From assembly GCA_003427395.1 (NCBI GenBank), contig BFEA01000013.1, positions 1,805,827 to 1,869,826 of the forward strand: a stretch of DNA of 64,000 nt, given 5' to 3'. Below are positions 17,114-61,702 of the stretch, piece by piece. The DNA is from Chara braunii. Lineage: Eukaryota > Plantae > Charophyceae. A program made the translations under genes and the position numbers. Each line of letters opens with the position of its first letter. Positions within the stretch are counted from its first letter, which is position 1. The notes under the pieces were generated by a model that was not told where the DNA came from, did no database searches, and saw only the letters and a program-made list of their open reading frames with translations.

Positions 17114-17154
<41 letters not shown>

Positions 17155-19216: not shown

Positions 19217-19259
19217 ACGAGTCCACCTCTTTATTTACATACTACTTGTACCTGGAGGT

Positions 19260-27904: not shown

Positions 27905-27946
27905 GACTAACCCTTGTACCTATCATTGCCCCCTCTCTCTGTGCAG
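27905..27946 (+). promoter_or_regulatory. Branch point, polypyrimidine tract and 3' splice site ahead of the extra ORF
   Basis: GACTAAC ... CCCCCTCTCTCTGTGCAG|G, 44 nt before ATG 27990. Confidence 0.7.
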
Positions 27947-27989
27947 GCGTGACCCTTGAAGAGAAGTGACCATAACCCAGAGAGGAAGG

Positions 27990-35100: not shown

Positions 35101-35686
35101 ATGAGTACCTAATCGTTAACCCTTAGTCAAGTCAGCGCATACGTAAGTAGCACGACGACTCACACATTAGCCTTTATCGCACCACTTTGTTCTTCAAACC
35201 CAAGCAATCTTAGGTTCCTTCCTTCCATCAGGCAGGATTCTACTTCAGTCATATATTCTTGTTACTTTTGATAAACTTAGTCCTGAAGAAGGCAAAAATA
35301 GTATATCATACAATCATACAGGCATTCCAATAGAAGGGCGTAGCCTGCAGGGTTACGGGAAGGGGTTAGGTGACACGTACCTCATGATTCCCTGCCTCCA
35401 GAGTTCCTCCTGAACTCCGGCAGAGCTCTCGCAATCGCCTTGTCATCGATCTCGTATCATACATGCAATAGGACGTCTGGACCTTTATAGGAATATATCA
35501 TTAGACAAGTTATAGTGTTGAAGAGATCGGTTCATGAGATGATCAAACAGGGAAAAAAATGGAGGAGGGTGGAGGAGGTAGGTACCACCACACAGTGATA
35601 ATGTCTCTCTCCTCTCCAACACCCCACACTCTTCCCCTTTTTGGCCCCTGCTTATCTCAGGATGTTTTAATAGTGAAACAACAACC

Positions 35687-35744
<58 letters not shown>

Positions 35745-37203
35745 TCAATACTACTACTAGTAGTATCAGAAGGTAAGCGTGTCAGACTGCGGACTACGCC
35801 GTCACACTGAAAGCCAAAAAAAACTGACACTGTTCGGAATAGTAATAATGCGTCGCTACCATACCAACAGAGAATCAGATCATCGCATCAGATCGTCAAT
35901 GAAGATGTTGACTATCTTAGACCATTGCATAGACCAGGTACATACCCTTACATCATCAACCTCATCCCTCTCTCTCTCACTCATGTACATACTTACACAC
36001 AGACACGGGTCGAGGGATCACACAAAATTCACACTCGAGACCAGAGATGCAGAGTCCGGATATGCTCAGTCATAACAGATTACTACAGTTTCTGGGATTA
36101 GTCACTAAGTGCCCAGAAGCGTAGTTCACAGCAACCCAATACCAGTACCCGCATCAAAGGTAGGCGGCTCTCCTCGTTATCTGTGTCTGTCTGTCTGAAT
36201 GTCTGTATGTATGTATCTGTCTGTCTGAATCAGTCTTGTCTGACCGTCTGCGTCTGTTTGGCTGATTGTCTGTTTCTGACTGTTTCTTGTATCTATCTGT
36301 CTGATCCTTCTCTCTCTCTCTTCTCCTGACTGTTACTCACTCCTCTCCCGGTTCTTCTTTTTTCCGTCTCCCTTTCTTGTATGCATGTTCGTCCCCCCTT
36401 TCGCACCCTCTCTGTATCTTTGCATCTCTCTCTCTCCCTCTCCCTCTTTCTGTGTCTGTATTGTTTCTGGCTTGTTAATCTGAACGCCACTGTCCGTCTG
36501 TATGTTCGTCTCCCTGTCTGCGTTTGTAAGATAGTCTGTTCTTGTTTCTCGGTCTGTCTTGCTTGTCTGTTTGACTGTCTGTTTGTCAAGCTGTCTGTTT
36601 CTGTTCTGCCTGTTTGGTCTGTTTGTTTATTCTGTTCTTTGTCTGTGTTCCGTCGCTGTCTGTCTGGTCACCTGTGTCTGGCTGTTTGTTTCGTGACCTG
36701 CATCTGCCTGCCTGCTCGTTTTGTCAATTCTCTCCCCTTTTGTTTACGTTGTCTGTCAGTTCCGCTAATTGTCTATTACTGTTTGTATCTGTCTGTTTGT
36801 TGTTGTCTGTCGGTGCCTGTTTGTCTAACGGCCCGCCTGTCATACGAGTCTGTTTCGTTCATACCCGCCGTCGTCTATCTGTTTGTATTCTGTTTGTCGT
36901 TGTTTTGACTGTCTGTCTATTTCTGTTTCGTTCGTTGAGTCTGTCCGACTATTTGTCTGTCCGCCTTCTGTTGGTTTGAATGTTTCTATTTAGTCAGACT
37001 GTTGTTGTTTGCATGTCCGGTTGTTCGTCCCTCTGTCTCACTTGTTAGATTTTGTCTGTCTTGGTCTATTTGTCCCAATCTTCGCTTGTTCTCTCTGTCC
37101 GTATTTGTCTGTGTATATTTGTCTGTGTCCTCTGTCTATCTGTCTATTTTTCGTCCGTTCGTGTCTGTCGTTTTGTCTTTGTGAGAGTGAGTGTATAGAG
37201 CGT
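32163..37203 (-). mobile_element. LTR D, 3' portion (solo or 3' LTR), antisense, inserted in the 3' LTR of A
   Basis: Minus strand ends ...GCTCGACA at 32163 with no PBS beyond; 32170-33400 is homologous to LTR B. Confidence 0.85.
33700..35170 (-). repeat. Stem-loop array in LTR D, including five ~91-bp tandem units at ~34676-35115
   Basis: Repeated AGGTAACTCACACATGAGTACCT and GTAATAGGATGAC...CCTATTAC hairpins. Confidence 0.8.
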
Positions 37204-39233
37204 TGTCGGACCAAATACCCTTACAAGGGTATTTGGCCATGCTTTTACATTCGACACGGTGACGGCATCGACTACCATAATGAAGCCAGTCTGGAATGGA
37301 AAGGGTGTGCACGCTTGAGTGTGACGCTCGAAACGAATACCTCGGCCAATGAGGCCGGGGCAAAATCGGTAAGAAAATTTCGATAAGTATGTGCGCGCGT
37401 TATTGTGACGTGCGCTCTAATGGTTAGAATCAGTAATAATACCCTTCGACCGAAGAGGTCGAGGGGTCGATTGGGTTAAGTGTTATGACGGGTAAACCTA
37501 TACAACCTACACCGTGACGGAGGCTTAAGCGTCCGTACGATAGTCAAGTTAAAATTAATATACGCCCCGACCGTACGGGCGGAGCAATTAACAATGAGTG
37601 ATCGTCAGGTTGAGGTAGCACCCTGAAATGCTAAGAGCTTGGCTCAAGCGGTATACCACGAGTAGGACTAAGGGTCTCACCCGAGTTCCCGCATATGGCG
37701 AAGCGTTTGCCTCTTACACGGTGACTTCCTGACTCCGTGGCACGCTTGCCTTTACTAGGTATGGTACCAGCCTACCTGCTACTTGAGTGTTTTCCCCGCT
37801 GTTATGAGTATGCAGGTTTAATCCACTGCCTTATAACGTTTCCGCCGCGTCCCTCAAGGCCACGACTACAGGTAAGTACCGGGCCTACGGGCCTTCAGAG
37901 CAACTATGTGCCCTTGCGGGTCACACACACGCCCAAGCCGACAGGCATGCAGACCGGCATGCGTACGCACACACAGACTTGGAAAACAGACTCAGGCCAC
38001 TAAGTAGGCCGAGCCCTCGATCCTCTGTATGTACCTTAGCGACTCTTTTCCTAACCATAATAGGAGCTAGCTCAGTTGGTTTAGGTGTAGATTGACAAGC
38101 GGGAGACACAGGGATCGAGGTTTACTGTCGCTGAGATTAGCTCCTTTTGAAAAGGGAGCCCTGCTTTTTTTTTTGCCCAGTTTCGAGTGGTCGGGGCTTG
38201 AACCCGCGATCACAGCATTAGGAGTAGTTATAGTTAGGTTGTTTGCCCAACAATTGGCACGTCGGAGGAGTTTGCAGTTGAAAATTTCTTTTGTTTTCTT
38301 TATTTTATTATTATTAGATTCGATTTTTAATTTTAGATTCTTTATATGTATGTATATTTTTATTTCTTTTAATTTTTCTGATCCCGTAGTTACTCTCCAC
38401 AGATTCGCTTTAGTGAATTTGTGTAAGGAAGCCGGGCAGATTCATTCTGCAAAGTCTGCTCGATTCAGAAAACGATGTCGAGGACTTGGTCCGCGCGATT
38501 TGGACTCAATGCTCGTCGGATGATCAGCGAACGCACGGGGAGCGGCGAAGATGGTCGGGTGGTGGTAGCAAGAGGGGAGATGCGCGGAGGGAGAGGAGGA
38601 GGATTGCGAGGAAGAAGGGCGACACGCGGGAGAGTAACGAGAGGAGTAATGGCAGGAGAAGACAGAAGAAGAAGAAGAAGTAGGAGGGAAGGAGGAGGAG
38701 AAGAAGAAGAAGGAGGGAGAAAGGAGAGGCGGAACCGCGGGAGAAGGAAGAGCGGCCGCGATGGGAAACAGCGGGCGAGTAGGAGGTGGTGTGCGGGGAT
38801 CAACTAAGAAGATGTGTGGTAGAAGGTAAGCGCGGGAAGCAGCGAAGATGACGAGCGGGATAGCATAAAGGAGGAAGATGGTCACGCGCAGAGAAAGTAG
38901 TATCGGAAGAAGAAGAAGGAGAAGAAGAAGAAGATGAAGAAGAAGAAGAAGAAAGAGGAGGAGGAGGAAAGAAGTAGAGGGGGAAAACACTTACCTGACC
39001 GTGCGGTCAGATGATTGCGGCTCCGACGACGACGACGACAACAAGCTAACGACGTGCCGCCGCCGCCACCGACGACAACAAGCTAACGACGTGCCGCCGC
39101 CGCCGCCGACGACGATGGCGATGACAAGGGAGCAAGAGAGAGAAAGCGGGTAAGTCTCCTACCCCAAGGCTAGCCGCACGCTACTTGGATCGGAAGACTC
39201 ATTCCGCTTTTGGTCGTCCTATCNNNNNNNNNN

Positions 39234-39328
<95 letters not shown>

Positions 39329-39503
39329 ATCAGTCTCCAACTCGCGCTTCGCCGCACGCTACCTGGATCGATAGAACGAGCAAATCAACAAGTGGTTGTG
39401 TATATTGCCACGTTTCAGCGGAAGATTCATTCCGTTTTTGCTCATCCTATCGATGGAATGTATGTGATCCTATCGATGGAATGAGAGTGATCCTAACGAT
39501 GGA

Positions 39504-39586
<83 letters not shown>

Positions 39587-39978
39587 GAGGCATGGAGACA
39601 CGTGGCATTTGTGTGTGGGGTTGAGTTTGTGAGTGTAGCGCGAGACATACCTGGTGCTGGAAAGCGTGCGACATCGGTCGCCATGTGCTCGTACTTCGGG
39701 AATGATGTTAATGTCATCTTTCGAATTCGTAGTATAAGCTAGATAGGATCCGCCACATGTAGTTTGGTCGCTGAGCGCCAAATAGGATATCAACTTTAGT
39801 TCTTCGTTGATGATGACGGGAATATTTCAGCATTGTCAATTATGAACTCTTTGTGTGTTCTTATTTGGTGGATCTCGTGATGCAATTATGCTGTTGGTTC
39901 AAGGTAAAGACTATCTGGACTCGTATGTATGATGCTGTTTGATTACTGAAAATCGTTAATTTTTTTTTTGCATATTTA

Positions 39979-40056
<78 letters not shown>

Positions 40057-42733
40057 CAGGTGCAATGTGGTTCTTGAGTCCACGTGGCATCTGTGTTGGG
40101 GATTGAGGTTGTGAGTGAAGGAGGACACGTACCTGGTGGAGGTGGAGGTCGGCATTGGTGTTGACATCATCATCACTCGCTGGTAGTCAAGTTGTCTGGT
40201 TGTTGTCATACTGTAGTTGTAGTGATAGGCTGTAGAGTAGATAGGGCGCCTAGCGCCATTCAGAAGAGAGAGCTACATTGGGTTATGCTGTTGGTGTTGC
40301 CCTGTTGAGCTTGGACATTGACTCACAATTCTTCTGTATCATTCTCAAATGGATGGTTACTCGGTTCCATTGTGCTATCTGCTCTTGCTTTCGCTACTTG
40401 GACTTCAGTGAGATTTTGCGATTTGGATTTTTGTGCTTCGTCCACATTCATGTTCCTTGCATATTTTCATTTTTATTATTATTATTTTATTATTTTTATT
40501 ATTTTTATTATTATTATTATTATTATTTGGGTCGTAGCGAAACGAAATCGAGAGAGAAAGAGACGAGGATGATGACGCGAGGGCACGTACCTCGCATCGG
40601 AGATGGTCTGCCTTGAGTGACATCTTCGAGTACTTCGCTGGCTGCTGACGTCTGCAATTGCATTGTCAATTTGTAGGCAAATAGTAGTTGTGCGGACGGT
40701 AGTCTGGGCGCTGAACGGCAGATAGGCAGTCGACATTGGTTTGTTGATGATGATGAGACTATTCCAGCATTGTCAAATATAGGTTTTGCTGTGTTCTTAT
40801 TTGGTGGACCTCGTGATGCGATCCTGCTGCTGGTTTTTTGAGGTCACGACAGTCTGATCTTGTCTATATACTGCTGTTTGATTTATGAAGTTGCCATCTT
40901 CATGGCATTTTTATTATTATTATTATTATTATTGTGCAATCGTACTCGCTTTCATTTACACTTTTCATGCATGTGAATGGCAGCACAGCAAGCTGGCGAC
41001 ATGCGCCGACTCAATACTCAGAAATATGGCATCCAGATAAGAATCCACTTTCACTGGCAATGGCGACTCAACGCCAAAACAACTCTCTGTTCACATATAC
41101 CAGATCGTCGTGGTTATCCTACACGCGGTAATCTGCACTCACGCAACACACACAGCACACATGCACACTAACTACAGCTATGGCAGTTATGGCTGCCTCT
41201 ACCCTATCGCTGTGCTACGCCCTTCTCTCTCGCCCACTGCGTCCGCCGGGTTCACTGCGGACCTCCTTGCACAAGTCGCTGTGACAGCGCTTCCGCATGG
41301 CTCACGCAGGAATGAATGAAAGGCTGGGTCCTGCCTCTTGATTTATACTCCGGAAACTCGTTGGACGACCCTGTTTCTCTGGCCCACGGTGTACACAGTC
41401 TCAGACGGTACGTGTTTGACTGGACTGGACTGGCTGGACTGGGACTGATTGAGTCCTGCCGCATCCCCGGTGAGAGAAAAGAGGGGGGAGGCAAATAGGC
41501 ACATATATACGGACTGTCGAACACATAGACAATCTGAAGCAGACAGCCAGATACCGGCAACCAGACAGGCTCAACATGGACAGACACAGACCTATCGAGA
41601 CAAGCACAGATGTGCAGGCAGACTGAACCAGACAGGCAGACGGATTGGGCAGTCACCAGATTGGACAGTCAGACACAGACTGTGACACAGGCACGCAGTC
41701 ACACGACGACAGTCACTCTGTGACATGTAAACACATTCACTCAATGGCATAGACACGGTGACGAAGACACTGTAAACAGATAAGTACACAGTGTGACAGT
41801 CACACAGACACACAATGACACATGCACGGTGAAACACACGCATACACAGTGGGACGGACACAGTTATTGTGACATACATAGTCACAGTGGAATAAACCCA
41901 GACATTGTGACATACGCAGTCACAGTGGGACAGATACACACTGTGACATACACGGTTGCACCATGACCTACAGATGCACGATGACGCATAGTCTTACACG
42001 GTGCACAGACACGGTGCACGGTCACACATAGTGCACAGTCGCGTAAACACTACACACACTGTCACTGTGACAAACACACGGATATTGTGACAGACCCGCA
42101 GATACTAAGAGCACACCTACAGGTACTGAGATAATGACGGTGACACTGTGACGCACGTAAACAAATGGAGCAAATACAGTAAAACACTGTGACATACACA
42201 GTGACACAGGCTGTGACATACGCGGTGTGACACAGACTGTGGCATGCACAGTAAAATACAGGTTGTGGTATACACAGTGTGACAGAGGCTATAACATACA
42301 CAACAAGATACAAACATTGACGCACCCAATGTCACACGAACCATGGAAACACATTGTAAGATACAGAATGTAACATACACCGTAACGTACATAGAGAAGG
42401 CACGAATTCAGGTACACAGTCGCACACGGAGTACACGGTGAAGTGACAGTCACTCAGTGATACATGCACCGTGACACATACACAGTAATAGCCACATAGT
42501 CACTCTGTCACACGGTGACACACGCAGTCTCGGTGACACACACAGTAACTAGCACCGCGACACACGCAACAGTTTGCGACATATACAGTGAGACACATAC
42601 ATGGTGACACACAGAGGGGGACATATACACAGAGCGAGGAAGAGAGGGATAGAGAAGGAGAGAATGAAAAAGGGGAGGAGTTATGATAAGGAGGAAACAT
42701 CGACAAAAGGGGCATCTTCTTTCCCTTAGTCTG

Positions 42734-42799
<66 letters not shown>

Positions 42800-43206
42800 T
42801 GTGTCATTATTTATTTTATTATTACCGATTGTTATCGTTTGATTATTTCTACTACCTGTGTTAGTTACTATAACTGACATGCGACATCAATACAGGGTCA
42901 CAGATGAAGAGAAAACATGGGGCATTGGAGAGGGAGGTGACGCTATCCTTTTGCGATAAGTGCCCACCTCCTTCACCCTTCTCCATGCTTAACTTTGTAT
43001 GGTCCTCTCATATACCTGCCTCCTCAAATTTATTCAATTGAGGGTTTGATCACCGTTGAGTTAACCCTGACCTCGACTAGCTCGAAGGGCCAGCAATCGA
43101 TTGCATGAATTATACATGATCGATGACAGGGCGATTGCGGGAGCTCTGCCGGAGTTCAGGCGGAACTCTGGAGGCAGGAAATAGTGAGGTATGGGTGCTC
43201 TAACAT

Positions 43207-43240
43207 AAAACCTAAACCCTAAACCCTAAACCCTAAACCT
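43207..43240 (+). repeat. Short (CCCTAAA)n telomere-type / telo-box tract (also ~57757-57790)
   Basis: AAACCTAAACCCTAAACCCTAAACCCTAAACC just after the predicted splice donor. Confidence 0.8.
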
Positions 43241-43659
43241 ATAACCTCAATAATACTAATAAATAAGACCACTTCGGGTCAAGGGTCCCTCAGGGCTAAA
43301 CCCGAGGGGCAGAAAGACAAACAGTAATGCTTGAATAAGGGAGGATAAGTATGATCTGTCTTGGTGAAATGACTGGCCAAATGTAACTGATTGCTTCTAG
43401 ATACAACGATCTTGCTGTGACGACATTTCTCGAAAATATGGATGCGAGGGATCAACTTCTCACGATCGTTCTCTGTACATACCGCCTAAACGATGATGGG
43501 TACCCTTAATTTGAGCTTGCTATGATCAACTGTCATGGATTACACCGGTCATTTCTCATTATGCATCTGATCCAGCGTTAATTCTTAAAACTAACAACGA
43601 TTCAGGGCTCGAATGGTATCAAAGGCAATAACTTGGTCCGTCGATAAGGCTTGTGTGGG

Positions 43660-45200
43660 GGTAAGAGTAGCAGGGCCGCATGAAGCCTGCCTTATCGGTG
43701 ACTGGCCGCATGATAAGAGTAGCAGGGTCTATGAAACCTGCCTTATCAACGACTAGCCAAGTGATAAGAGTAGCAAGGCTCCATGAAAAGGTTCTGCCTT
43801 ACCACCGATGAGTCTTACATTCGGTCAGTGATAAGAGTAACAGGGTTCCTTAAACACCCGCCTTATTGATGACTAACTAGTGATAAGAGTAGCAGGGAAA
43901 GCCAGCCTTATCAGTGACTAGTCTGATATAAGAGTAGCGAGGTTTCAAGGACACCTGCCTTATCATTGACCAATCTAACCTTCTTTCAGTGGTAAGAGTA
44001 GCATGATTCNNNNNNNNNNNNNNNNNNNNNNNNNNNNNNNNNNNNNNNNNNNNNNNNNNNNNNNNNNNNNNNNNNNNNNNNNNNNNNNNNNNNNNNNNNN
44101 NNNNNNNNNNNNNNNNNNNNNNNNNNNNNNNNNNNNNNNNNNNNNNNNNNNNNNNNNNNNAAGCCTGCCTTATCAATGACTAGTCTGATATAAGAGTAGC
44201 GAGGTTTCAAGGACACCTGCCTTACCATTGACCAATCTGACATTCATTCAGTGGTAAGAGTAGCAGGGTTCCTTGGACACCCGCCTTATTGATGGCTAGC
44301 CAGTGATAAGAGTAGCAGGGGAAGCCTTCTTATCAGTGACTAGTCTGATATAAGAGTTGCGACGTTTCAAGGACACCTGCCTTATCAGTGATCAGCCTCA
44401 CATTCATTCAGTGGTAAGAGTAGCAGAATTCCTTGTACACCTGCCTTATTGAGGTCTAGCCAGTGGTAAGAGTAGCAGGGAAGCCTGCCTTATCAGTGAC
44501 AAGTCTTATATAAGAGTAGCGAGGTTTCAAGGACACTTGCCTTATAAGTGATCATCCGAACACTTAGTTAGTGGTAAGAGTAGCAGGGTTCCTTTGACAC
44601 CCGCCTTATTGATGGCTAGCCAATGATAAGAGTAGCAGGGGAAGCCTGCCTTATCAATGACTAGTCTGATATAAGAGTAGCGAGGTTTCAAGGGCACATG
44701 CCTTATCATTAACTGATCTAACATTTTTTTTCGGTGATAAGAGTAGCAGGGTTCCTTGAACACCTGCCTTATTGAGGTCTAACCAGTGATAAGAGTAACA
44801 GGGAAAGCCTGCCTTATCAGTGACTTGCCTGATATAAGAGTAGCAGGGTCTTAAGGACAACTGCCTTATCAGTGATCATCCTAGCACTAAGTCAGTGATA
44901 AGTGTAGCAAGATTCCTTGGACATCTGCCTTATTGATGTCTAGCCAGTGATAAGAGTAGCAGGGAAAGTCTGCCTTATCAGTGACTAACCTGATATAAGA
45001 GTAGCAGGATTTCAAGGACGCTTGCCTTATCGGTGATGAGCCTTACACTCGGTCAGTGATAAGAGTAGCAAGGTTCCTTGGATACCTGCCTTATTGAGGT
45101 CTAGCCAGTGATAAGAGTAGCAGGGAAAGCTTGTCTTATCAAGTGACTTGTCCAATGTTAGAGTAGCGAGGTTTTAAGGACACCTGCCTTATCAGTGACT
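43660..45200 (+). repeat. Array of at least 26 bulged stem-loops in the E 5' LTR, three-unit ~160-bp higher-order repeat
   Basis: GATAAG-AGTA-GCAGG-loop-CCTGC-CTTATC; same unit type recurs at 44251, 44411, 44571, 44733, 44894, 45056. Confidence 0.93.
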
Positions 45201-46850
45201 AGCTATGGGTTAAGCCTACCACTAAGTGTGCTTCAGCGCACAGGGGCCAAGACTCATAAGGTTTGTCCTTGTCAAACAGGCTTCAGTAACAAGTGGATAA
45301 ATCCTGAATGGTCTGTCATACCATCACTAACTTTCTCCGCGATCTGCATCGTTCAGTCCTAACTTACTATCTCTGATTCTACTGGGAGGTAAAGTGAGAT
45401 CTTGACTTAGAGAAGCTTATCACCCTTTGAAATTCTTATTCGAGCTTTATCACGTGATTCCTTTCTCAATTGAATGAATTGTATTGCTTGTGGTGGCTAG
45501 GGACATGGGGCTCATAAAAAGAAGGAAACTAAGTACAATCGCAGGGAAGCAGGGGCGAAGAATGAGCTTTGTTCGTCGCCTGGACCGACTGGGCAGCGAA
45601 CTGACAGTTAGATCAGGATAGAAGTTAGGTAGTAGGTCGACGACATGCAAAAAACTTTTGGTCACAAGTCTAGAAGGGATCTTGTAGGACCCAAAGAGAG
45701 GATGCTGAGATTCTTTTGGACCATGTTGTATCTACAGATTCATCACTCTTGGAGAGGACTACGGAAGAAATCCGTAAGGAACTGCAAATTTTGTTATCTC
45801 TGGATAACAGGTCGGTATAACTCCGACTCGACTTCCACATGGCTTGATACCCACACCTAAGACAAGACCTAAGAAGGGATTAGATAAATCTTCCTCCTGT
45901 ATCTACACCTAGATTTGGCCAAATCACACTCAGAGGTCTTTGAAAATGTGAAGGACTGGGGTAAAAGGAGTTGGGTTTAGAAAGGAATATTGTTTTCAAG
46001 GTTTTGGGGCGTGAGTGGCTTGCTATGAATGGGTTAAAGGTTGATGCTTTTAGCGCATTCTGTGTCTGCATCTGTATGCGTGTATGTGTTTTCATTGCAT
46101 CTGTACAGGTGTTGGGCATTGAATTATCTTCTGAATTTTGGGATCATCTGGGGATATTCGGACAACAGGTCACAACAATTGTGAAAGTAAGGTCAACCGC
46201 TCATTCAACTCCCCTAATTTACATACAACCGCTCATTCAACTCCCCTAATTTACATACATACTTATATATATATATATATGTGAGTGAGATGATAGTTGG
46301 TCGGGGCTCAGAAAGTCATCTGTCTAGGTTCTGTTTGAAAGAATGGGAGAGTACAAAGGGGTCTGATTCTGACCTTCTCATATGGTCAACAAAATAAACA
46401 TAGAGTCATTATCACAGTTAGCTAAGCGTAGAAGACTGTCCGAGAAAATTGACCTGATTAGATAGTCGGTCCGGGGAATTAACACCTCGGGGCACGACAC
46501 ACGGGTCAGTCTTAAGGCGTTCTACCACGTGTATCATGCCTATGCTACGACGATCGAGAAAACGCCTGGCTGACCTACCTCTGCGATTGCATGTAAAAGC
46601 CTTCGCACGTGGGTTAGTAGCTCAGCAGGGATACGCCCACCTAAGGGATGGTGACAGCTCCTACGGGTGGAGGTATGTTGAACCTTGCGGGACCCTAACC
46701 TGTCGTAGGGAGTCGCGAGAGGTATAGCACGCCCGCACGGTCAGAGTTGGTATTGCGTAAAGTCACAAGAAAACTCCTGCGTGATACGACCGTGAGGTCC
46801 GACACAAAAACTACTTTGCCTCTGGGTGTGAGACCGCCGCGCGCGACAGG

Positions 46851-46870
46851 TGACGCCGTTGTCGGGGATC
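46851..46870 (+). promoter_or_regulatory. Primer-binding site of element E (tRNA-Asp)
   Basis: TGACGCCGTTGTCGGGGATC, 18/20 match to the complement of the tRNA-Asp 3' end. Confidence 0.9.
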
Positions 46871-49674
46871 TCGCTTCCTAGCCAAGGTCCTCAGTGAACG
46901 AGCTCGGGTATGGTAAGTCGATGATCTAGGCAAAACGACAATTCTAATCCACGTACTGGGATATAGTTTGACCAAGGATTCTGAGTGGGGAGTACGCAAG
47001 GGTGGTCATAGCGTATAAACCACTCGAAGATTATAGAACAGAATAGGTACTAGGAGTGAATGGGTGGTACAAGTAAGACGACAGTCAATGAAAACGTGTG
47101 ACAAGGATCGCCCTAGAGAGTGAAAGGAGAAGTATTCCATTGATAATAACCTGAGGTTATCTAGAATCCTTTAAAGACCAAGGGTATTGGGTCGGATAAC
47201 CTTAAAGGCTTTATTGTCTAGCTATTGTCCTCGCATTAATATGGTACCCAAAGGCCGCGGGACTGGTACTGGGAGAGGAAGAAGCGTAAGGTAAGGGAAG
47301 ACCGCCGAGAGGCCTATAGATTTGACCAAAGAGTGGGAGGATTGAAAAAAGGGAGATGGAGGGCTACATGAGAAGGAAGAAGGGGTAGAGGCTCGTAGGC
47401 ATCAGGACGAGTGGAGTGAGCATATCCCGTCTCCGGGAAAGATTACGTGTTACGAACGTGAGAGGCATTACGGCACCTCACCTCTGCGTTGCGAGTCACC
47501 AAGTTCCCGTCACTTCGGGTCTTGTCCACCGCCTTCTTCCTCTGCTCAAGAACGAAACAATTGACTGTCCTTCCTCAATCCTGACAACCAGAGTTTCAGT
47601 CAATGCCTCATGTTCCTGATCCTTCTATCGTCTCTCAATCCGCATCGCTCGACCGGAGATTGTGCGTCTCCCTTGTGATGTTCTTGTTATATCGACTAAA
47701 GATTTGCGGGTTGATTTCCTACTTGTTGTACAAGAGAATTATAAGAAGCATTGAACGAGCATTTAAGAGAGTCGAGAATTGTGAAGGAGTTAAGGATGAA
47801 CAGATATAATGAGAAAGATGTCAGGATCTTTAGGGAGTGACCCTAGGAGGTGAGGATAGGTGAAAGTTGTATATGGTACTTACTGTCAATAAGTAGAGTC
47901 CGATGATTTAGCTAGGAGATAGAAGTTGAAGAAGATAGTAATGTGCTTATTTAAGCGGGTATCAAATTAGAAACTTGAAGTGTAAGACAAGTGAGATAGG
48001 GGGTAGATGAACTAAAGAGGTGGATTGAGTACGTAACTCGTGCACGAGAATTGACTCATTTAGACTTTTGTTAGTCTAAGGGTTGTTCTTGCGAGCAAAG
48101 TTTACGGGTGGAGACCTGTTTACTCAGAAGTCTAGCGGATCCACAAAAGAGGACGAACAGAATGGGTAGAACGACTTATTAGGCCAACTGTAGTTGCTTG
48201 CAAGAATAGGCACATAATCCTAAGTTTAGTCAGTGAGGCAGTGAGGAAATATGTGTCAAACCATCTTGTTTATGTTCAACTTGATGGCTATATCCATTCA
48301 TGAGGATAGTTGTTTAAACTCATCCACCCTGGACCATCTACTTGAATATACCCAGTTGAATCTAAGCGTTTAAATCCATTCTCTTGAGGCCGTTCATTTC
48401 AGGTTATCCATTTAAAAATTATTCATTCATGTCAATCTATTCTAAGTCTATTCACGTGAAACTATCTATCTGATGCATTTTAATTGCTTGAGTTTTCCAT
48501 CTGAGTTTATTTATTCCAGACTGTACACTTAAATTCATCCGTCTCAGTTAATCAAATTCTGCTATTCGTCTATATTTTGAGCTCGTTTGTCTGGATTGCT
48601 CTCCTTATAAAGGATAGAGAAGTTACGCAGAATCCACGTCCGACGCAGGGTCGGGGGTGAATGGAGTGAGCAACTCCTTGGGAGAAGAAATTCTCTCAAG
48701 AGTTGGTCAATGTGTAGAGTCTATTCTTGAGAGAGTTACAATCCTAAGTTATCCTTTCCCTGACAGATGGTTTGAAGGAGCTATAAATTCGTCTTCTAAG
48801 GTAGTAGTGAGACCCACGCCGGAACTATGTTGCACATAGTGGGGTGTTGTCACCTGACCCTTTGAGGAATGGTGACTACATTACTACTGAGAAGGAGGAA
48901 AGTGTTTAAACCTTGTTAGACTATGGTCTATGATGGAGGCAACTACTGCGTACCGCAAGGAGGTAGGGGGTGATTCCCCAACTATCTTTGTATCAAGTGA
49001 GTTCACTATCATCAGAAAGGATATGTCATCCTGGAACGTGTACGGTGAGGTTGTCTACCAATTGACAAGAGTCTGCAAGGGACGGATACTGGAATCGGAG
49101 GGTGAAGCAGTGAGACTTGGTCCTTGAGCGGGGCTCAGAGTCTAAGATGTTATCCCTTTAAAGGATTACACTGCCCCTTGATACAATATACTCATGTCAA
49201 AGCCGAGGGAGTAGAAAATAGTACTCTTATTATCTTTGCATTCAGAAACATTTATCATTAAAAACTTTATTGACTACAGCATGACTATTGTTTATGATCG
49301 TAACAGGTACCATAAGTTTTCCGTCATCACCAATGCATGCATATGCTTACTAGGCTTGTCTCTTCGCTGCTAAAACTATTTACATACCGAACTATTATAA
49401 CTATTAACTATTATGAGTGCTATGGCAGTATGTCCTCATTATGAGTCACAGTCATTATAATAATTTATGACCTTCACAAATTATAAATGCATTGCTATCG
49501 CAATATACTTTTATGACCTGCTTTGAATGGTCTTAGGCGTTTGGAGGTTAGCAATGATAGTAAGGTATGGTTTGAATATTACATTTCGGAAAGAATATAG
49601 TAGGAAGGAGAAACTCTGTAAAGTGATGAGAGGTTTTATTAGGCGTTTGTCTATATGAGCAGGACCTAGGGGTA

Positions 49675-49839
49675 GCAGAAGAAGGACACTTCAGGGACGA
49701 TTGTGAGGTTTTTGCCAGATACATTAAGGCAAGGATGACTGAGTTTGATGCACAAGGGAAGTTGGTTGCCAACGTTGGACAGACAATCCCCAAGACATCC
49801 AAGGATGACATGATATAACTTCACCAGATACTGGGGTTG
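49675..49839 (+). pseudogene. Remnant of the C-terminus of the extra ORF in element E
   Basis: AEEGHFRDDCEVFARYIKARMTEFDAQGKLVANVGQTIPKT aligns with TEEGHFRYDCTILAEYIRKGMVRFDSRGRLVTSNGQTIPKT of element A. Confidence 0.85.
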
Positions 49840-51403
49840 GATAACACCTTCCTAGTTTAGAAACAAGTGGGTGTATGAACTTCTTAATAAATTGAGGTGT
49901 TTGTTGGGTAAGAGAGAACATGGATAAGTAGAGTGCAGTCTGAAAAGAGGACAAATGTTTTTTCTTTGAGTTTTGATAGGATAAAGGTTTAGAGTAGATG
50001 ATAGTATAGGAAAATGCATCGACATTTGAGGATAAGGAAGAAAGAGATGAGTCGCAAGTCTGACTTATTATAACATACGTTATATTTATATATATATCCA
50101 AAGGGGATGAGCTGGTGACCACGAACACTTTCACGTTATGAGTGAATCCTTGTCTACGATTGAGTCTTTTGTAAGTCAGTATCTCCCTTTGTCTATCACT
50201 ATTGAACTCATTTGAGACCTAGAGATGGTGGTAGAGGAACGAGCGGATCAGTACCTTGTGTGAAAGTCAGTGAAAGGTTGTACGACCAAGATCTTGGAAG
50301 GATTGATTATATGTTTGAGAAACCATGCTACGACATGGACAAACCTATTTCAATGAGTTAAAACGTTTGCGATCATTTTTGAATGGGATGTTTGTTTTGG
50401 TGGTTTCAGACCAGCAAAGAGTCAACAAATATTTATTTCATTTAAAAATAATATTTATATATATATATATATATAATACAAATGACCCCGAGGTACGTGC
50501 CTCACCGAGCTATGATCAAAGACTTGGAGGGCACAACCCTGAGTGGAAGTCTGACGATTGCTCAATTTATTAAAAATCTCATTTATTTGGTTTATTTTAA
50601 AAACATCGTTCATCAATTTCAAGGGTTAACCTGAGGGCATAAATTACCAAGCCTATGGTGGAAAATTGGCATTGTTGGGACGTAACTCCCAGTGTGGGCT
50701 GCTGACCTAGTGTAACCAGGCAGCGGACCCTTCGACTATGGCCTCGAAGAGAAACTAGAGGGGTGACCAACCCAATGAAAGGATCTATTCAGGTGGATGT
50801 CGAAGGGGTCGAGATTAGTCTTGAAATCTATAATTTTAAAGATAGGATGAATATCTCATCGTTGCGCAACCAACGGGGATAACCACCGATAAGCAACAAC
50901 GCGGTGGGTCGCAGCTCCGGCCTGATCAGCAGGACTGTGGTGGGTCATGATGGAGACCGTTGCCCTCCTGTATTAGGCTTCGAGCAGGACGACAGACATT
51001 TTTGGATTGTGATATCAAGATTTGAACACCCAAGGTCTCGGTTAGGACCTGCGTTTGACGGGATGAGTTCGTACGCGAATACCAACCCTGAAAACAACCA
51101 GCGAATACCTGGGTCAAAAGTCTAAGGGTATGGGGAAAGGAAAGGCGCGTTGTCATACTTAACTATTTCATATACTGTAGTACTGATCAAGTATCCCCAC
51201 TTCAAGTCATTCAATTATTTTATAATGTGGGAGACCCGGGTTAGAATCTCTGCAGTAGTAATGAAAAGTGAGGTGACGACGTCAATCCTAAACCACATCT
51301 CATTCCAGGATTCGGATTTGACGATTTGCTTGTCGGAAAACATCTTTTGTTTGCATATAGTTCTTCAGGCGACGGGGACGTCGCTTAATGGGGTCTGGGA
51401 TAC

Positions 51404-53469
51404 TGTCGGACCAAATACCCTTACAAGGGTATTTGACCATGCTTTTACATTCGACACGGTGACGGCATCGGCTACCATGATGGAGCCAGTCTGGAATGGA
51501 AAGGGTGTGCACGCTTGGGCGTGACGCTCGAAACGAATCCCTCGTCCAATGAGGTCGGGGAAAAATCGGTGAGAAAATTTCGATAAGTATGCACGCGCGT
51601 TATTGTGACGTGCGCTCTAATGGTTAAAATCGGTAATAATACCCTTCGACTGAAGAGGTCGAGGGATCGATTGGGTTAAGTGTTATGACGGGTAAACCTA
51701 CAACCTACACCATGACGGAGGCTTAAGCGTTCGTACGATAGTCAAGTTAAAATTAATATACGCCTCGACCGTACGGGCGGAGCAATTAACAATGAGTGAT
51801 CGTCAGGTAAAGGTAGCACCCTGAAATGCTAAGAGCTTGGCCCAAGCGGTATACCACGAGTACGACTAAGGGTCTTACCCGAGTTCCCGCATATGGCGAA
51901 GCGTTTGTCTCTTGAACGGTGACTTCCTGACTGCGCGGCACGCCTGCCTTTACTAGGTATGGTACCAGCCTACCTGTTACTTGAGTGTTTTCCCCGTTGT
52001 TCTGAGTATGCAGGTTTACCTCGCTGCCTTATAACTTTTCTGCCGCGTCCCTCAAGGCCACGACTACAGGTAAGTACTTGGCCTACGGGCCTTCTGAGCA
52101 ACTAAGTGCCCTTGCGGGTCACACACACGCCCAAGCCGACAGACATGCAGACCGGCATGCGTACGCACACACAGACTTGGAAAACAGCCTCAGGCCACTA
52201 AGTAGGTCGAGCCCTCGATCCTCTATATGTACCTGAGCGGCTCCTTTCTTAACCAGAATAGGAGTTAGCTCAGTTGGTTAGGTATAGATTGACAAGCGGG
52301 AGACACAGGGATCGAGGTGTACCGCCGCTGAGACTAGCTCCTTTTGAAAAAGGAGCCCTGCTTTTCTTTTTGCCCAGTTTCGAGTGGTCGGGGCTTGAAC
52401 CCGCGATCACAACATTAAGAGTAGTTATAGTTAGGTTGTTTTCCCAACAATTGGTACGACGGAAGAGTTAGCAGTTGAATTTTTTTTTTTTTTTCTTTAT
52501 TTTATTATTATTAGATTCGATTTTTAATTTTAAATTCTTTATATGTATGTATATTTTTATTTCTTTTAATTTTTTTAATCCCGTAGTTACTCTCCACAGA
52601 TTTTCTTTAGTGAATCTGTGTAAGGAAGCCGGGCAGATTCATTCAGCAAAGTCTGCTCGATTCAAAAAATGATGTCGAGGACTTGGTCGGCGCGATTTGG
52701 ACTGAGTGCTCGTCGGATGATCAGCGAACGCACGAGGAGCGGCGAAGATGGTCGCGCGGTGGTAGCAAGAGGGGAGACGAGCGGAGAGAAAGGAGGAGTA
52801 TTGCGCGGAAGAAGGGCGACACACGGGAGAGTAACGGGAGGAGTAATGGTAGGAGAAGATAGAAGAAGAAGAAGAAGTAGGAGGGAAGGAGGAGGAGGAA
52901 AAGAAGAAGGAGGGAGAAAGGAGAGGAGGAGCCGAGGGAAAAGGAAGAGCGGGCGCGATGGGAAACAGCGGGCGAGTAGGAGGTGGTGCGGGGGGATCAA
53001 CTAAGAAGATGCACGGTAGAAGGTAAGTGCGGGAAGCAGCGGAGATGACGAGCGGGATAGCGGAGAGGAGGAAGATGGCCGCGCACGCAAAGAAAGTAGT
53101 ATCGGAAGAAGAAGAAGGAGAAGAAGGAGAAGAAGAAGAAGAAGAAGAAGAAGAAGAAGAAGAAGAAGAAAAAAGAAGAAGAAGAAAGAGGAGGAGGAGG
53201 AAAAAAGTAGAGGGGGAAAGCACTTACCTGATCGTGCGGTCAGATGATTGCGGCTCCGACGACGACGACGAGAACAAACTAACAACGTGCCGACGACGAC
53301 GACGACGACAACAAGCCAACGACGTGCCAACGACGACGACGATGACAATGGCGATGGCAAGGGAGCAAGAGAGAGAAAGCGGGTAAATCTCCTACCCCAA
53401 GGCTAGCCGCACAGTACTTGGATCGGAAGACTCATTCCACTTTTGCTCGTCCAATCGTGGAGTGTGTGT

Positions 53470-53552
<83 letters not shown>

Positions 53553-53821
53553 NNNNNNNNNNNNNNNNNNNNNNNNNNNNNNNNNNNNNNNNNNNNNNNN
53601 NNNNNNNNNNNNNNNNNNNNNNNNNNNNNNNNNNNNNNNNNNNNNNNNNNNNNNNNNNNNNNNNNNNNNNNNNNNNNNNNNNNNNNNNNNNNNNNNNNNN
53701 NNNNNNNNNNNNNNNNNNNNNNNNNNNNNNNNNNNNNNNNNNNNNNNNNNNNNNNNNNNNNNNNNNNNNNNNNNNNNNNNNNNNNNNNNNNNNNNNNNNN
53801 NNNNNNNNNNNNNNNNNNNNN

Positions 53822-53863
<42 letters not shown>

Positions 53864-54110
53864 TAGAGAGAGAGAGAGAGAGAGAGCTTATCAGTCTCTA
53901 GCTCGCGCTTCGCCGCGTGCTACCTGGATCGATAAAACGAGCAAATCAACAAGTGGTTGTGTATATTGGCACGTTTCAGCGGAAGATTCATTCCGTTTTT
54001 GCTCATCCTATCGATGGAATGTGGGTGATCGTATCGATGGAATGTGTGTGATCCTATCGCTGGAATGAGAGTGATCCTAACGAAGCAATGTGACTGATCC
54101 TAACGATGGA

Positions 54111-54158
<48 letters not shown>

Positions 54159-57100
54159 AAGAGAGAGAGAGGAGGGATGGAGACAGGTGGCATCTGTGTG
54201 TGGGGTCGAGTTTGTGAGTGTAGGGCGAGACACACCTGGTGCTGGAAAGAGTGCGACATCGGTCGCCATGTGCTCGTACTTCGGGAATGCTGTTGATATC
54301 ATCTTTCGACTTCGTAGTATAGGCTAGATAGGATCCGCCACATGTAGTTTGGGCACTGAGCGCCAGATAGGATATCAACTTTAGTTCTTCGTTGATGATG
54401 GCGGGAATATTTCAGCATTGTCAATTATGAACTCTTTGTGTGTTCTTATTTGGTGGATCTCGTGATGCAATGATGCTGTTGGTTCGAGGTCAAGACTATC
54501 TGGACTCGTACGTATGATGTTGTTTGATTACTGAAGATCACTATTTTTTTTTCCTTCATATTTATATATTATTATTATTATTATTATTACTATTATTATT
54601 ATTATCAGGTGCAATGTGGTTCTTGAGTCCACGTGGCATCTGTGTTGGGGATTGAGGTTGTGAGTGAAGGAGGACACGTACCTGGTGGAGGTGGAGGTCG
54701 GCATTGGTGTTGACATCATCATCACTCGCTGGTAGTCAAGTTGTCTGGTTGTTGTCATACTGTAGTTGTAGTGATAGGCTGTAGAGTAGATAGGGCGCCT
54801 AGCGCCATTCAGAAGAGAGAGCTACATTGGGTTATGCTGTTGGTGTTGCCCTGTTGAGCTTGGACATTGACTCACAATTCTTCTGTATCATTCTCAAATG
54901 GATGGTTACTCGGTTCCATTGTGCTATCTGCTCTTGCTTTCGCTACTTGGACTTCAGTGAGATTTTGCGATTTGGATTTTTGTGCTTCGTCCACATTCAT
55001 GTTCCTTGCATATTTTCATTTTTATTATTATTATTTTATTATTTTTATTATTTTTATTATTATTATTATTATTATTTGGGTCGTAGCGAAACGAAATCGA
55101 GAGAGAAAGAGACGAGGATGATGACGCGAGGGCACGTACCTCGCATCGGAGATGGTCTGCCTTGAGTGACATCTTCGAGTACTTCGCTGGCTGCTGACGT
55201 CTGCAATTGCATTGTCAATTTGTAGGCAAATAGTAGTTGTGCGGACGGTAGTCTGGGCGCTGAACGGCAGATAGGCAGTCGACATTGGTTTGTTGATGAT
55301 GATGAGACTATTCCAGCATTGTCAAATATAGGTTTTGCTGTGTTCTTATTTGGTGGACCTCGTGATGCGATCCTGCTGCTGGTTTTTTGAGGTCACGACA
55401 GTCTGATCTTGTCTATATACTGCTGTTTGATTTATGAAGTTGCCATCTTCATGGCATTTTTATTATTATTATTATTATTATTGTGCAATCGTACTCGCTT
55501 TCATTTACACTTTTCATGCATGTGAATGGCAGCACAGCAAGCTGGCGACATGCGCCGACTCAATACTCAGAAATATGGCATCCAGATAAGAATCCACTTT
55601 CACTGGCAATGGCGACTCAACGCCAAAACAACTCTCTGTTCACATATACCAGATCGTCGTGGTTATCCTACACGCGGTAATCTGCACTCACGCAACACAC
55701 ACAGCACACATGCACACTAACTACAGCTATGGCAGTTATGGCTGCCTCTACCCTATCGCTGTGCTACGCCCTTCTCTCTCGCCCACTGCGTCCGCCGGGT
55801 TCACTGCGGACCTCCTTGCACAAGTCGCTGTGACAGCGCTTCCGCATGGCTCACGCAGGAATGAATGAAAGGCTGGGTCCTGCCTCTTGATTTATACTCC
55901 GGAAACTCGTTGGACGACCCTGTTTCTCTGGCCCACGGTGTACACAGTCTCAGACGGTACGTGTTTGACTGGACTGGACTGGCTGGACTGGGACTGATTG
56001 AGTCCTGCCGCATCCCCGGTGAGAGAAAAGAGGGGGGAGGCAAATAGGCACATATATACGGACTGTCGAACACATAGACAATCTGAAGCAGACAGCCAGA
56101 TACCGGCAACCAGACAGGCTCAACATGGACAGACACAGACCTATCGAGACAAGCACAGATGTGCAGGCAGACTGAACCAGACAGGCAGACGGATTGGGCA
56201 GTCACCAGATTGGACAGTCAGACACAGACTGTGACACAGGCACGCAGTCACACGACGACAGTCACTCTGTGACATGTAAACACATTCACTCAATGGCATA
56301 GACACGGTGACGAAGACACTGTAAACAGATAAGTACACAGTGTGACAGTCACACAGACACACAATGACACATGCACGGTGAAACACACGCATACACAGTG
56401 GGACGGACACAGTTATTGTGACATACATAGTCACAGTGGAATAAACCCAGACATTGTGACATACGCAGTCACAGTGGGACAGATACACACTGTGACATAC
56501 ACGGTTGCACCATGACCTACAGATGCACGATGACGCATAGTCTTACACGGTGCACAGACACGGTGCACGGTCACACATAGTGCACAGTCGCGTAAACACT
56601 ACACACACTGTCACTGTGACAAACACACGGATATTGTGACAGACCCGCAGATACTAAGAGCACACCTACAGGTACTGAGATAATGACGGTGACACTGTGA
56701 CGCACGTAAACAAATGGAGCAAATACAGTAAAACACTGTGACATACACAGTGACACAGGCTGTGACATACGCGGTGTGACACAGACTGTGGCATGCACAG
56801 TAAAATACAGGTTGTGGTATACACAGTGTGACAGAGGCTATAACATACACAACAAGATACAAACATTGACGCACCCAATGTCACACGAACCATGGAAACA
56901 CATTGTAAGATACAGAATGTAACATACACCGTAACGTACATAGAGAAGGCACGAATTCAGGTACACAGTCGCACACGGAGTACACGGTGAAGTGACAGTC
57001 ACTCAGTGATACATGCACCGTGACACATACACAGTAATAGCCACATAGTCACTCTGTCACACGGTGACACACGCAGTCTCGGTGACACACACAGTAACTA

Positions 57101-57282
57101 GCACCGCGACACACGCAACAGTTTGCGACATATACAGTGAGACACATACATGGTGACACACAGAGGGGGACATATACACAGAGCGAGGAAGAGAGGGATA
57201 GAGAAGGAGAGAATGAAAAAGGGGAGGAGTTATGATAAGGAGGAAACATCGACAAAAGGGGCATCTTCTTTCCCTTAGTCTG

Positions 57283-57348
<66 letters not shown>

Positions 57349-60300: not shown

Positions 60301-60772
60301 TACGGAAGAAATCCGTAAGGAACTCCAAATTATGTTATCTCTGGATAACAGGTCGGCATAACTCCGACTCAACTTCCACATGGCTTGATAACCACACCTA
60401 AGACAAGACCTAAGAAGGGAACAAATAAATCTTCCTCCTGTATCAACACCTAAATTTGTCCAAATCACACTCAGAGGTCTTTGAAAATGTAAAGGGTTGG
60501 GGTAAAAGGAGTCAGGTTTAAGAAGGAATGTTGTTTTCAAGGTTTTAGGGCGTGAGTGGATTGCTATGAATGGGTTAAAGGTTGACGCTTGTAGTGCATT
60601 CTGTGTCTGCATCTGTATGCGTGTATGTGTTTTCCTAGCATCTGCACAGGTGCTGTGCATTGAACTGTCTTCTGAATTTTGGGATCATCTGGAGATATTC
60701 GGACAACAGGACACAGCAATTGTGAAAGTAAGGTCAACCGCTCGTTCAGCTCCCCTGATTTACATACATACT

Positions 60773-60828
<56 letters not shown>

Positions 60829-61390
60829 TGAGATCATAGTTGGTCAAGGGTCAGAAAGTCATCTGTTTAGGTTCTGCTTGAAAGAATGTGAAAGTACAAA
60901 GGGGCCTGATGATGGCCTTCTCATATGGTCAACATAATAAACATAGAGTCATTATCATAGTTAGCTAAGCGTGGAAGACTGTCCGAGAAAGTCGACCTGA
61001 TTAGATAGTCGGTCCGGGGAATTAGCACTTCGGGGCACGACACACGGGTCAGTCTTAAGGCGTTCTACCGCGCGTATGCCTATGCTACAACGGTCGAGAA
61101 AACGCCCTCGGTTGGCCTACCTCTGCGATTGCATGTAAAAACCTTCGCACGTGGGTCAGTAGCTCAGCAGGGATACGCCCACCTAAGGGATGGTTACAAC
61201 TCATGTAGGTGGAGGTATGTTGTACCTCGCGGGACCCTAACCTGTCGTAGGGAGTCGCAAGAGGTATAGCACGTGCGCACGGTCAGAGTTGGTATTGCGT
61301 AAAGTGACAAGGAAACTCCTGCGTGACACGACCGTGAGGTCCGACACAAAAACTACTTTGCGTCTGGGTGTGGGACCGCCGCGTGCGATA
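51404..61390 (+). repeat. 3' LTR of element E (~10 kb including N gaps)
   Basis: Direct repeat of 37204-46848; followed by TSD GCGT. Confidence 0.92.
58208..59730 (+). repeat. Bulged stem-loop array in the E 3' LTR
   Basis: Same units as 43660-45200. Confidence 0.93.
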
Positions 61391-61394
61391 GCGT

Positions 61395-61659
61395 GCATTT
61401 GGGGTATTCAGGGTGATCCGGAGTTGAAGAGTGAAGTGAGCAGTGGTGTTGGACACAGTGCCAAGAGCTACGATGTTTGAGTGCTGATGCACCATAATCT
61501 GTCGAAGCGAGCTTGCATCTGAACGGTATCTTGGTCTCCATATCTTCCAGCTTTGAGTTGGGCGCTATGCGCCAGCGAGAATCCCCAACTGTTTGTATGT
61601 ATGCGAAATGTAAAGGAAAACGAGCCTGCCTACCGGTAAAATAATAATAATAATAATAA

Positions 61660-61702
<43 letters not shown>

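Follow-up and report, generated by a model that had tools for sequence, protein, structure and literature searches.

A 64,000-nucleotide window of the genome of Chara braunii (contig BFEA01000013.1, positions 1,805,827 to 1,869,826 of the forward strand; coordinates below count from its first letter) is a nest of Ty3/gypsy retrotransposons with six copies, A to F, of giant long terminal repeats (LTRs), and we found that these copies share an elaborate leader formed by the downstream 3.3-3.7 kb of each giant LTR. Its parts follow a common order, namely a hairpin, a donor-like site (donor 1), an intron-like stretch bearing an array of stem-loops, acceptor 1, a short exon, donor 2, acceptor 2 and an end block with donor 3, which precedes the primer-binding site. 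The whole is predicted to be a three-exon spliced leader that would use acceptors 1 and 2 and donors 2 and 3. We directly observed the layout, the motifs, covarying stems in the arrays of B and C, sense RNA on exon 1 and a contig that retains the intron. This architecture is real, selected-looking and richer than first described: a first-pass annotation had recognized the shared order, which is real, but donors 2 and 3 and LTR F had escaped it, and it had merged two different acceptors.

The layout and the LTR termini were obtained by self-comparison of the window, and conservation was judged on six copies, about three independent lineages, in this one window. Whole LTR copies are 5.6-10 kb in length.

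37204 to 46848, plus strand: LTR E, the 5' LTR of element X, 9,645 bp with TG..CA ends
46849 to 51403, plus strand: internal region of X, a deletion derivative without gag-pol, with a purine-rich tract at its end
51404 to 61390, plus strand: LTR F, the 3' LTR of X, 9,987 bp
37200 to 37203 and 61391 to 61394: target site duplication (TSD) of X, GCGT
46851 to 46869, plus strand: primer-binding site of X; a second copy lies at 12097 (element Y)
3049 to 10381, plus strand: LTR B, solo, 7,333 bp, TSD CCGA and CGGA, sitting inside the array of A
13571 to 19216, minus strand: LTR C, solo, 5,646 bp, TSD ACGA
32163 to 37203, minus strand: LTR D, 3' part; its U3 resumes at 61391 to 64000 past element X
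2480 to 12094, plus strand: LTR A, surviving 3' part, the 5' LTR of element Y, interrupted by B

Element X, inserted in the U3 of LTR D, is by its sequence a non-autonomous element of 24 kb in total with an interior of about 4.5 kb, and its two LTRs, E and F, are 94.8% identical overall. The interval under study, previously taken as LTR E, is the 3' 3.7 kb of this 9,645-bp LTR; acceptor 1 of E and the partner LTR F had been overlooked. Element Y, whose 3' LTR begins near 31834, received the insertions B, C and D. All TSDs are 4-bp NCGN sequences, comprising three pairs (CCGA and CGGA, ACGA and ACGA, GCGT and GCGT) and a single flank, GCGG. Two primer sites were found within 4 mismatches of a 19-nt motif, which we take to be that of tRNA-Asp.

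The leader of LTR E contains the following features (a slash in a motif marks the splice point).

43132 to 43188, plus strand: conserved hairpin at the end of predicted exon 1
43189 to 43190, plus strand: donor 1, GAG/GTATGG, where loose read ends diverge
43660 to 45198, plus strand: array of bulged stem-loops, 24 units outside an N gap, with a 161-bp higher-order period
45736 to 45737, plus strand: predicted acceptor 1, rank 4 of 128 YAG sites on a crude score
45738 to 45810, plus strand: predicted middle exon, 73 nt, no ATG
45791 to 45830, plus strand: twin hairpin holding predicted donor 2
46107 to 46108, plus strand: predicted acceptor 2, rank 1 of 128 YAG sites on the crude score
46500 to 46848, plus strand: structured end block, holding predicted donor 3

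The previously annotated pairing of the hairpin with a GT donor was confirmed in all four LTRs for which it had been claimed, as donor 1 reads AG/GTA at 6692 (B), 16789 on the minus strand (C), 35380 on the minus strand (D) and 43189 (E), ten bases past a shared anchor. The flanking bases, that is, a five-base spacer before the site and the bases after it, vary among the B, C/D and E/F lineages, and AG/GTA itself is kept, F excepted. Acceptor 1, aligned on the twin hairpin, is present in all six copies (B 8931, A 11018, E 45737, F 60278, C 14537, D 33132), and acceptor 2 in five of the six (B 9294, A 11388, E 46108, F 60649, D 32780), that of C being broken at about 14184. The five acceptors listed by the first-pass annotation (9294, 11388, 14537, 33132 and 46108) are thus all acceptor-like, but two different sites had been merged: 14537 and 33132 lie 70-71 nt upstream of the twin-hairpin anchor, and 9294, 11388 and 46108 lie 287-305 nt downstream of it. 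The intron sizes of 2.25-2.9 kb given at that time likewise blend the distance from donor 1 to acceptor 1 (2240-2549 nt) with that from donor 1 to acceptor 2 (2601-2920 nt). On our crude home-made score, acceptor 1 ranks 2-11 and acceptor 2 ranks 1-18 among the 38-141 YAG sites per LTR stretch scanned, and branch-like motifs accompany both conserved acceptor positions.

Exon 2 would be 73-83 nt long, without an ATG in B, D and E, the three copies counted. It ends at donor 2, which has the form CAG/GTCRRY (CAG/GTCGGT in E), lies within the twin hairpin in all six copies (B 9015, C 14458, D 33054, A 11092, E 45811, F 60352) and scores 6.5-8 of 9 on a home-made U1 score. Donor 3, the best U1 match of the donors, reads AG/GTA[AT]GT in all six end blocks (GAG/GTATGT in E), 167-190 nt before the LTR end (B 10192, C 13737, D 32330, A 11919, E 46673, F 61215). 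The whole window holds 17 motifs of this form, both strands counted, and 6 of them are these, with about 0.016 expected per 330 nt. Intron 1, from donor 1 to acceptor 1, measures 2240 nt in B, 2253 in C, 2249 in D, 2549 in E and 2541 in F, with N gaps included in the last two values, and intron 2 measures 275-298 nt. Intron 1 is thus nearly equal in B, C and D although their arrays cannot be aligned, and the five splice-like sites keep one order across lineages with unalignable array regions.

Two simple repeats adjoin the leader. Five to six telomere-like TAAACCC units follow directly after donor 1 in E and F only (43202-43247 and 57755-57796), and an (ATT)n run, a candidate promoter or poly(A) region, lies 236-308 nt 5' of the hairpin in C, D, E and F (17082-17221, 35687-35744, 42734-42824 and 57283-57373), not in B.

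As annotated earlier, the array, the twin hairpin and the end block are present in every copy keeping those parts. The arrays of B, C, D and E are mutually unalignable, and C and D align at the intron ends only. Each family has its own loop or bulge motif, found on the sense strand only: a 4-5-nt purine-rich bulge is common to 24 units in E, 25 in F and 5 in A; a short upper stem with a 5-6-nt loop characterizes C and D (8 units each by pattern); and 11 units with a fixed hexaloop make up the array of B, for which the antisense strand gave 3 matches against a shuffle mean of 2.0. A and E share the bulged core and differ in spacers and apical loops, and a 151-N gap lies inside the E array at 44010-44160. 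When the left and right stems of units were swapped, using flanks outside the unit pattern, the own stems paired better than the swapped ones in C (p = 2.5e-4, 8 units), B (p = 5e-4, 11 units) and D (p = 0.012, 8 units), and random-position controls fell below p = 0.05 in 0, 0 and 4 of 40 trials. The pairing effects were -4.7 (C), -3.2 (B) and -1.6 (D) kcal/mol, and the best controls -0.7, -1.0 and -2.0 kcal/mol. Stem covariation is thus solid in B and C and weak in D. We also considered that the C and D arrays might be the A/E motif in inverted form, and rejected this, as the motifs are sense-strand only and cross-family matches fold differently.

These arrays could be passengers, arising because hairpins favour template switching and slippage as the RNA is reverse-transcribed, with the expansions tolerated by an intron whose splicing is real, as in the non-coding LTR RNAs of maize; in our estimation this is not a likely account. 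Template switching can perfect stems in the absence of selection, and the E/F units are recent, weak tandem duplicates. It is common for plant non-chromoviruses to carry tandem arrays in large non-coding regions (PMC6317226), and the LTR-contained spliced RNAs of maize are of unclear significance (PMC13192763). A passenger origin sits poorly, however, with the non-tandem units of B and C, which keep their loops on variable yet paired stems, with the restriction of all motifs to one strand, with the near-equal length of three unalignable introns, and with the bulged core that A and E keep while their spacers and apical loops differ.

RNA evidence came from three raw oligo-dT runs (X1 to X3) and two contig sets, including X4, with the same species label. 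A search of RNA data for the E stretch itself listed no matching set, to which we attach no weight. The reads come from other copies, mostly less than 95% alike; identity of at least 99% was found for 0 of 740 reads in X3 and 22 of 7,893 in X2. On the hairpin of E, at 43155, sense versus antisense-oriented reads numbered 48 and 0 in X1, 67 and 1 in X3, and 109 and 80 in X2, and the array bins of E had a depth of 0 in X1, X3 and X4 and up to 1.6 in X2. The exon-1 bin of B had a depth of 59.3 sense versus 0.25 antisense in X3, with 1-3 across the intron. Because 4922-6325 was empty in all four sets, the transcription start probably lies 5' of the hairpin, near 6426 or before it, and sense-stranded coverage extends over the hairpin and the sequence upstream of it. 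A contig of X4 (1,763 nt, depth 33), which we guess to be RNA, crosses donor 1 from exon 1 into the array. In addition, 26 reads of X3, probably from one locus and either spliced or diverged, exit the B sequence two bases past donor 1 with an agreement of 0.89, and loose ends after 43178 (16 reads in X1, 23 in X3) show a B-type spacer to the AG and then diverse sequence, in which GT is not the plurality (agreement 0.59 and 0.58). Taken together, donor 1 is probably used and intron-retaining RNA exists, the LTR-internal junctions being predictions, and much exon-1 RNA seems to continue into sequence outside the window. By eye and post hoc, the 26 reads leaving B at 6694 were seen to have a 10-letter word in common with the branch-point region near 9251-9260.

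The hairpin is strongly conserved and of modest stability (z -0.4 to -2.7), with 3 of 20 pairs changed on both sides. Across the six copies the end block has 75% identity, with both sides altered in 16 of its 98 predicted pairs, and donor 3 lies inside a paired region. Since donor 2 is likewise enclosed by structure, in the twin hairpin, the hairpins around donors 2 and 3 might, together with the arrays, be splicing controls that dampen or pace the reaction and so let some full-length RNA escape, with no packaging role. The presence of intron-retaining RNA and the nearly constant intron length would suit such controls, yet family-specific loops exceed the needs of a generic structural brake and the joints listed tie no array to splicing efficiency, and we regard this explanation as quite unlikely. 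We assign a similarly small chance to the idea that the donors serve mainly as U1 sites blocking premature polyadenylation across the 3.5-kb R-U5 of the 5' LTR, in a foamy virus-like manner, the acceptors and arrays being secondary. In foamy virus, the major LTR donor suppresses the 5' poly(A) site and RNA structure gates U1 access (PMC3694450); here, the best U1 match is donor 3, within structure, and no LTR junctions were seen among the joints listed. On the other hand, two acceptor positions with branch-like motifs are conserved as well, and reads diverge at donor 1.

Known ribozymes, iron-responsive elements (IRE) and retroviral signals were rejected as identities of these structures, as no Rfam family matched: Rfam gave 8 matches with E<=1 in the window, none of which reached its gathering score or fell on the hairpin, an array or an end block, and one of them was a chance-level snoRNA match of 20.6 bits in F between acceptor 2 and the end block. 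A scan of metagenomes with the hairpin motif returned 3 loci, all of them chance matches in genes that look bacterial, none of which BLAST matched to the window, and the motif was not found in viral contigs.

In LTR replication, every part of an LTR passes through genomic RNA. Introns that persist in LTRs therefore mean that unspliced RNA is what gets copied, wherever the start lies; this argument of the first-pass annotation follows from established LTR replication, and its RNA support is partial. Splicing from donor 1 would remove the array, and the primer site would be lost as well if donor 3 (or donor 1) were joined to an internal acceptor, because both donors lie upstream of it, so that only unspliced RNA could then be copied. 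A candidate internal acceptor is the site before the Gag-like 3' open reading frame (ORF) of element Y.

27946 to 30268, plus strand: extra 3' ORF of Y, broken, behind predicted acceptor 27946, with a Gag-capsid-like start, a coiled-coil-like middle and a zinc knuckle

The acceptor at 27946 ranks 1 of 331 on the crude score. The start of this ORF resembles retrotransposon Gag with atlas scores of 0.91-0.92, which we treat as a lead only, and its end gives a weak zinc-knuckle match (E 0.003). We consider it the best of the readings, quite possible though somewhat short of an even chance, that the array is a tag on intron-retaining genomic RNA, by which an element-encoded protein would export or package it; both the binding protein and the sorting role are conjectural. 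Family-specific loops, covarying stems, many copies and a spliced-out location fit a protein-read tag on genomic RNA. A more elaborate scheme, which we think unlikely, would be RNA sorting like that of complex retroviruses wholly within the LTR, in which a stem-loop code of each family's own would be read by its own second Gag-like zinc-knuckle protein. That protein would come from spliced RNA without the array and the primer site, and each family would export or package only its own unspliced genomes. Precedents are the distinct RNA pools of BARE (PMC3735527) and the CERV export protein made from a spliced 3' ORF (PMC10309623).

Several observations weigh against a selected, spliced leader that carries such a tag. 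None of the 5 joints listed in E matched a predicted junction, so that the junction 43189-46108 expected by the first-pass annotation was not recovered, in a weak test with an acceptor depth of at most 0.23 in X1 and X3 and at most 7 in X2; nor was any predicted junction present among the 15 joints listed of 64 in the B-A-C region. As the reads come from other copies, the loose read ends may derive from diverged unspliced copies. Past acceptor 2 of B, the depth in X3 was 1.1-3.6, as thin as over the intron, so that a dominant RNA joining exon 1 to exon 3 was not seen, and X2 covers the intron and exon 3 of B (7730-10537) heavily and about 2:1 antisense-oriented, which sets it apart from X3, a run from the same study. 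On the U1 score donor 1 reaches no more than a moderate 6-7 of 9, and in F it is mutated to AG/AT at 57738. The twin hairpin has no compensated pair among 13. As for the arrays, the unit patterns were written after the folds had been seen, the effect in D (-1.6 kcal/mol) is inside the range of one control (minimum -2.0), and a sense advantage beyond compositional strand bias was found in C alone (-5.4 versus -2.1). The hairpins of E and F fold weakly, at a mean of -9.2 and -8.6 kcal/mol and a mean z of -1.3 and -1.2, their units fold equally well antisense, and fixed 80-nt windows over the array have a mean z of -0.04 (E) and +0.24 (F), that is, no unusual stability.

Some of these observations would also suit arrays that act, in an arms race over silencing, as a source or decoy of small RNAs or as DNA sites, bound by a family-specific anti-silencing protein from an extra ORF, a possibility to which we give very little credence. 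The arrays may resemble those of VANDAL/VANC. The repeated motifs are family-specific, the extra ORFs are of unassigned function, the antisense-oriented coverage in X2 is strong, and D, E and F have no sense-strand folding advantage. Stem covariation points instead to a single-strand structure and not to a double-stranded motif, and the 3' ORF is Gag-like.

The remaining coding parts of element Y place it among Ty3/gypsy elements.

19259 to 27600, plus strand: gag-pol of Y, degenerate, in PROT-RT-RH-INT order, with stops, frameshifts and one insertion
13062 to 13570, plus strand: extra 5' ORF of Y, cut by insertion C

The PROT-RT-RH-INT order between TG..CA LTRs, the primer site, the purine tract and the TSD are those of Ty3/gypsy, and a profile of 16 Chara relatives has Ty3 Gag-Pol as its best solved relative (E 8e-50). 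Reverse transcriptase (RT) has at least 120 relatives with 46-88% identity, all from Chara braunii among the matches listed; among 30 RT matches examined, the named non-Chara ones were from Riccia (37%) and two basidiomycetes (36-37%). No chromodomain was found in the 16 Chara relatives at E 0.1, whose gene models may be incomplete. An archaeal-type RNase H (aRH) was likewise not detected, since the 16 relatives had no second RNase H family and no solved structure matched. The 240-aa linker between RH and INT was without a match, and family searches with the 5' ORF gave none. We filed Y only as a member of a non-chromovirus-like Ty3/gypsy group with apparently mixed lineage traits.

Phygy, a clade of non-chromovirus Ty3/gypsy elements in Physcomitrella (PMC6317226), is similar in its 4-bp NCGN TSDs and in having neither aRH nor chromodomain, and differs in its total length of 7.7-10 kb, its tRNA-Trp primer and its lack of extra ORFs; the Chara elements have single LTRs of up to 10 kb, an Asp-like primer and extra ORFs on both sides of the gag-pol of Y. 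The Athila/Tat/Ogre (OTA) elements share the Asp primer (Athila 72%, TatII 37%), large LTRs, non-coding tandem arrays and extra ORFs, and Athila produces a spliced subgenomic RNA for its 3' ORF (PMC7197481). However, Athila has 5-bp TSDs and the Chara elements 4-bp ones, Tat (including TatII, Ogre and Retand) carries aRH, seen in 0 of 16 Chara relatives, the intron of Ogre lies between ORFs and not in the LTR, and OTA LTRs reach about 5 kb in a survey limited to LTRs of up to 6 kb. In BARE1 and EVADE (Ty1/copia), splicing parts translated from packaged RNA, whereas the intron lies in gag-pol, the superfamily is copia and the available text names no stem-loop array. The foamy virus has an LTR donor gated by structure (PMC3694450), and in the Cer1 CERV and HIV Rev/RRE systems unspliced genomic RNA is exported by a product made from a spliced 3' ORF; these are animal elements for which whole introns or repeat arrays inside the LTR are not described in the text available, and the likeness seen here is one of layout.

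The closest parallel is in maize, where a preprint (Gooden et al. 2026, PMC13192763) describes abundant spliced transcripts contained in LTRs and presents them as the first evidence that LTRs hold introns. As predicted for Chara, the introns there lie within the LTR, often with three exons and a short middle exon, mostly in Ty3 or unclassified elements, and are long (mean 1,303 bp; PMC13192763). In contrast, the maize junctions have long-read proof and those of Chara are predicted, and the Chara LTRs have sites conserved across diverged families, arrays and a third donor before the primer site. The main text of the maize paper, as far as available, contains no 'hairpin', no relevant 'tandem' and no RNA packaging, and reads the RNAs as possibly domesticated lncRNAs. 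A 2025 review describes plant LTR elements as generally without introns and their RNA export as not studied directly (PMC12786077), a 2020 preprint of Panda and Slotkin treats general splicing of transposable elements with no statement on LTR introns in the part available, and PMC3485330 was among the comparison papers. Literature searches that covered few subscription papers yielded nothing on stem-loop arrays within the introns of LTRs and no work on these LTRs of Chara. The earlier view that such a layout is undescribed in plants is therefore wrong for the introns, already known in maize; in our searches neither covarying arrays with family-specific motifs nor a donor that precedes the primer site turned up in print.

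Some further observations concern the U3 regions and the nested insertions. The heaviest RNA pile on the alignment of element X, in both orientations, lies in the U3 of F at 51958-52283 (about 37760-37960 in E) and surrounds a perfect CAG/GTAAGT donor motif at 52070 (37872 in E). The U3 of B contains a U6-snRNA-like stretch at 4012-4155 on the plus strand (RF00026, 36 bits, E 2e-5, under the gathering score of 44), which has a T run at its end. Numerous RNA reads and contigs share 4014-4054 and have differing flanks on either side of it, which suggests many U6-like copies in different contexts. Cassandra LTRs carry a 5S copy, which this stretch recalls, and our literature search found no paper on such a U6-like LTR stretch. 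A tRNA-like or Pol III-like hairpin with paired ends and a T run occurs at 38063-38160 (plus) in E, 52260-52350 (plus) in F and 63690-63800 (minus) in D, in each case about equally far from the LTR start and closely followed downstream by a T-arm-like motif on the opposite strand. True tRNA genes in U3 were rejected, as ARAGORN called none at its default score, and its 32 scattered relaxed calls missed the candidate.

LTR A is truncated by a stretch at about 150-2346 with subterminal repeats, the end of which, by eye, presumably reads on the minus strand like a CACTA terminus. Inside the integrase region of Y sits an insertion of about 1.5 kb (about 25917-27465) that looks MITE-like by eye; its subterminal repeats are CG-rich, and within it an inverted duplication flanks an N gap. 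A perfect 38-bp palindrome at 27606-27643, between two identical 139-bp copies, is adapter-like and likely an assembly artefact; we take it to resemble a Nextera mate-pair junction adapter. A 2.5-kb stretch at 40204-42703 is 100% identical to its F counterpart, the remaining LTR being 89-98% identical, and reflects repeat collapse, gap filling in the assembly, or gene conversion. Both signs of assembly artefact, the palindrome and the identical 2.5 kb, are clear of the leader splice sites.

If five splice-like sites are conserved across deeply diverged families of a charophyte alga, introns in LTRs would be shown to be parts of the element under selection, and the family-specific arrays are a concrete candidate for an export or packaging signal. 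LTRs of 7-10 kb exceed the 6-kb limit of the standard plant survey, and such elements would therefore be missed or mis-annotated. If sorting of unspliced genomes by arrays within the LTR holds true, the same principle could account for the three-exon LTR transcripts of maize.

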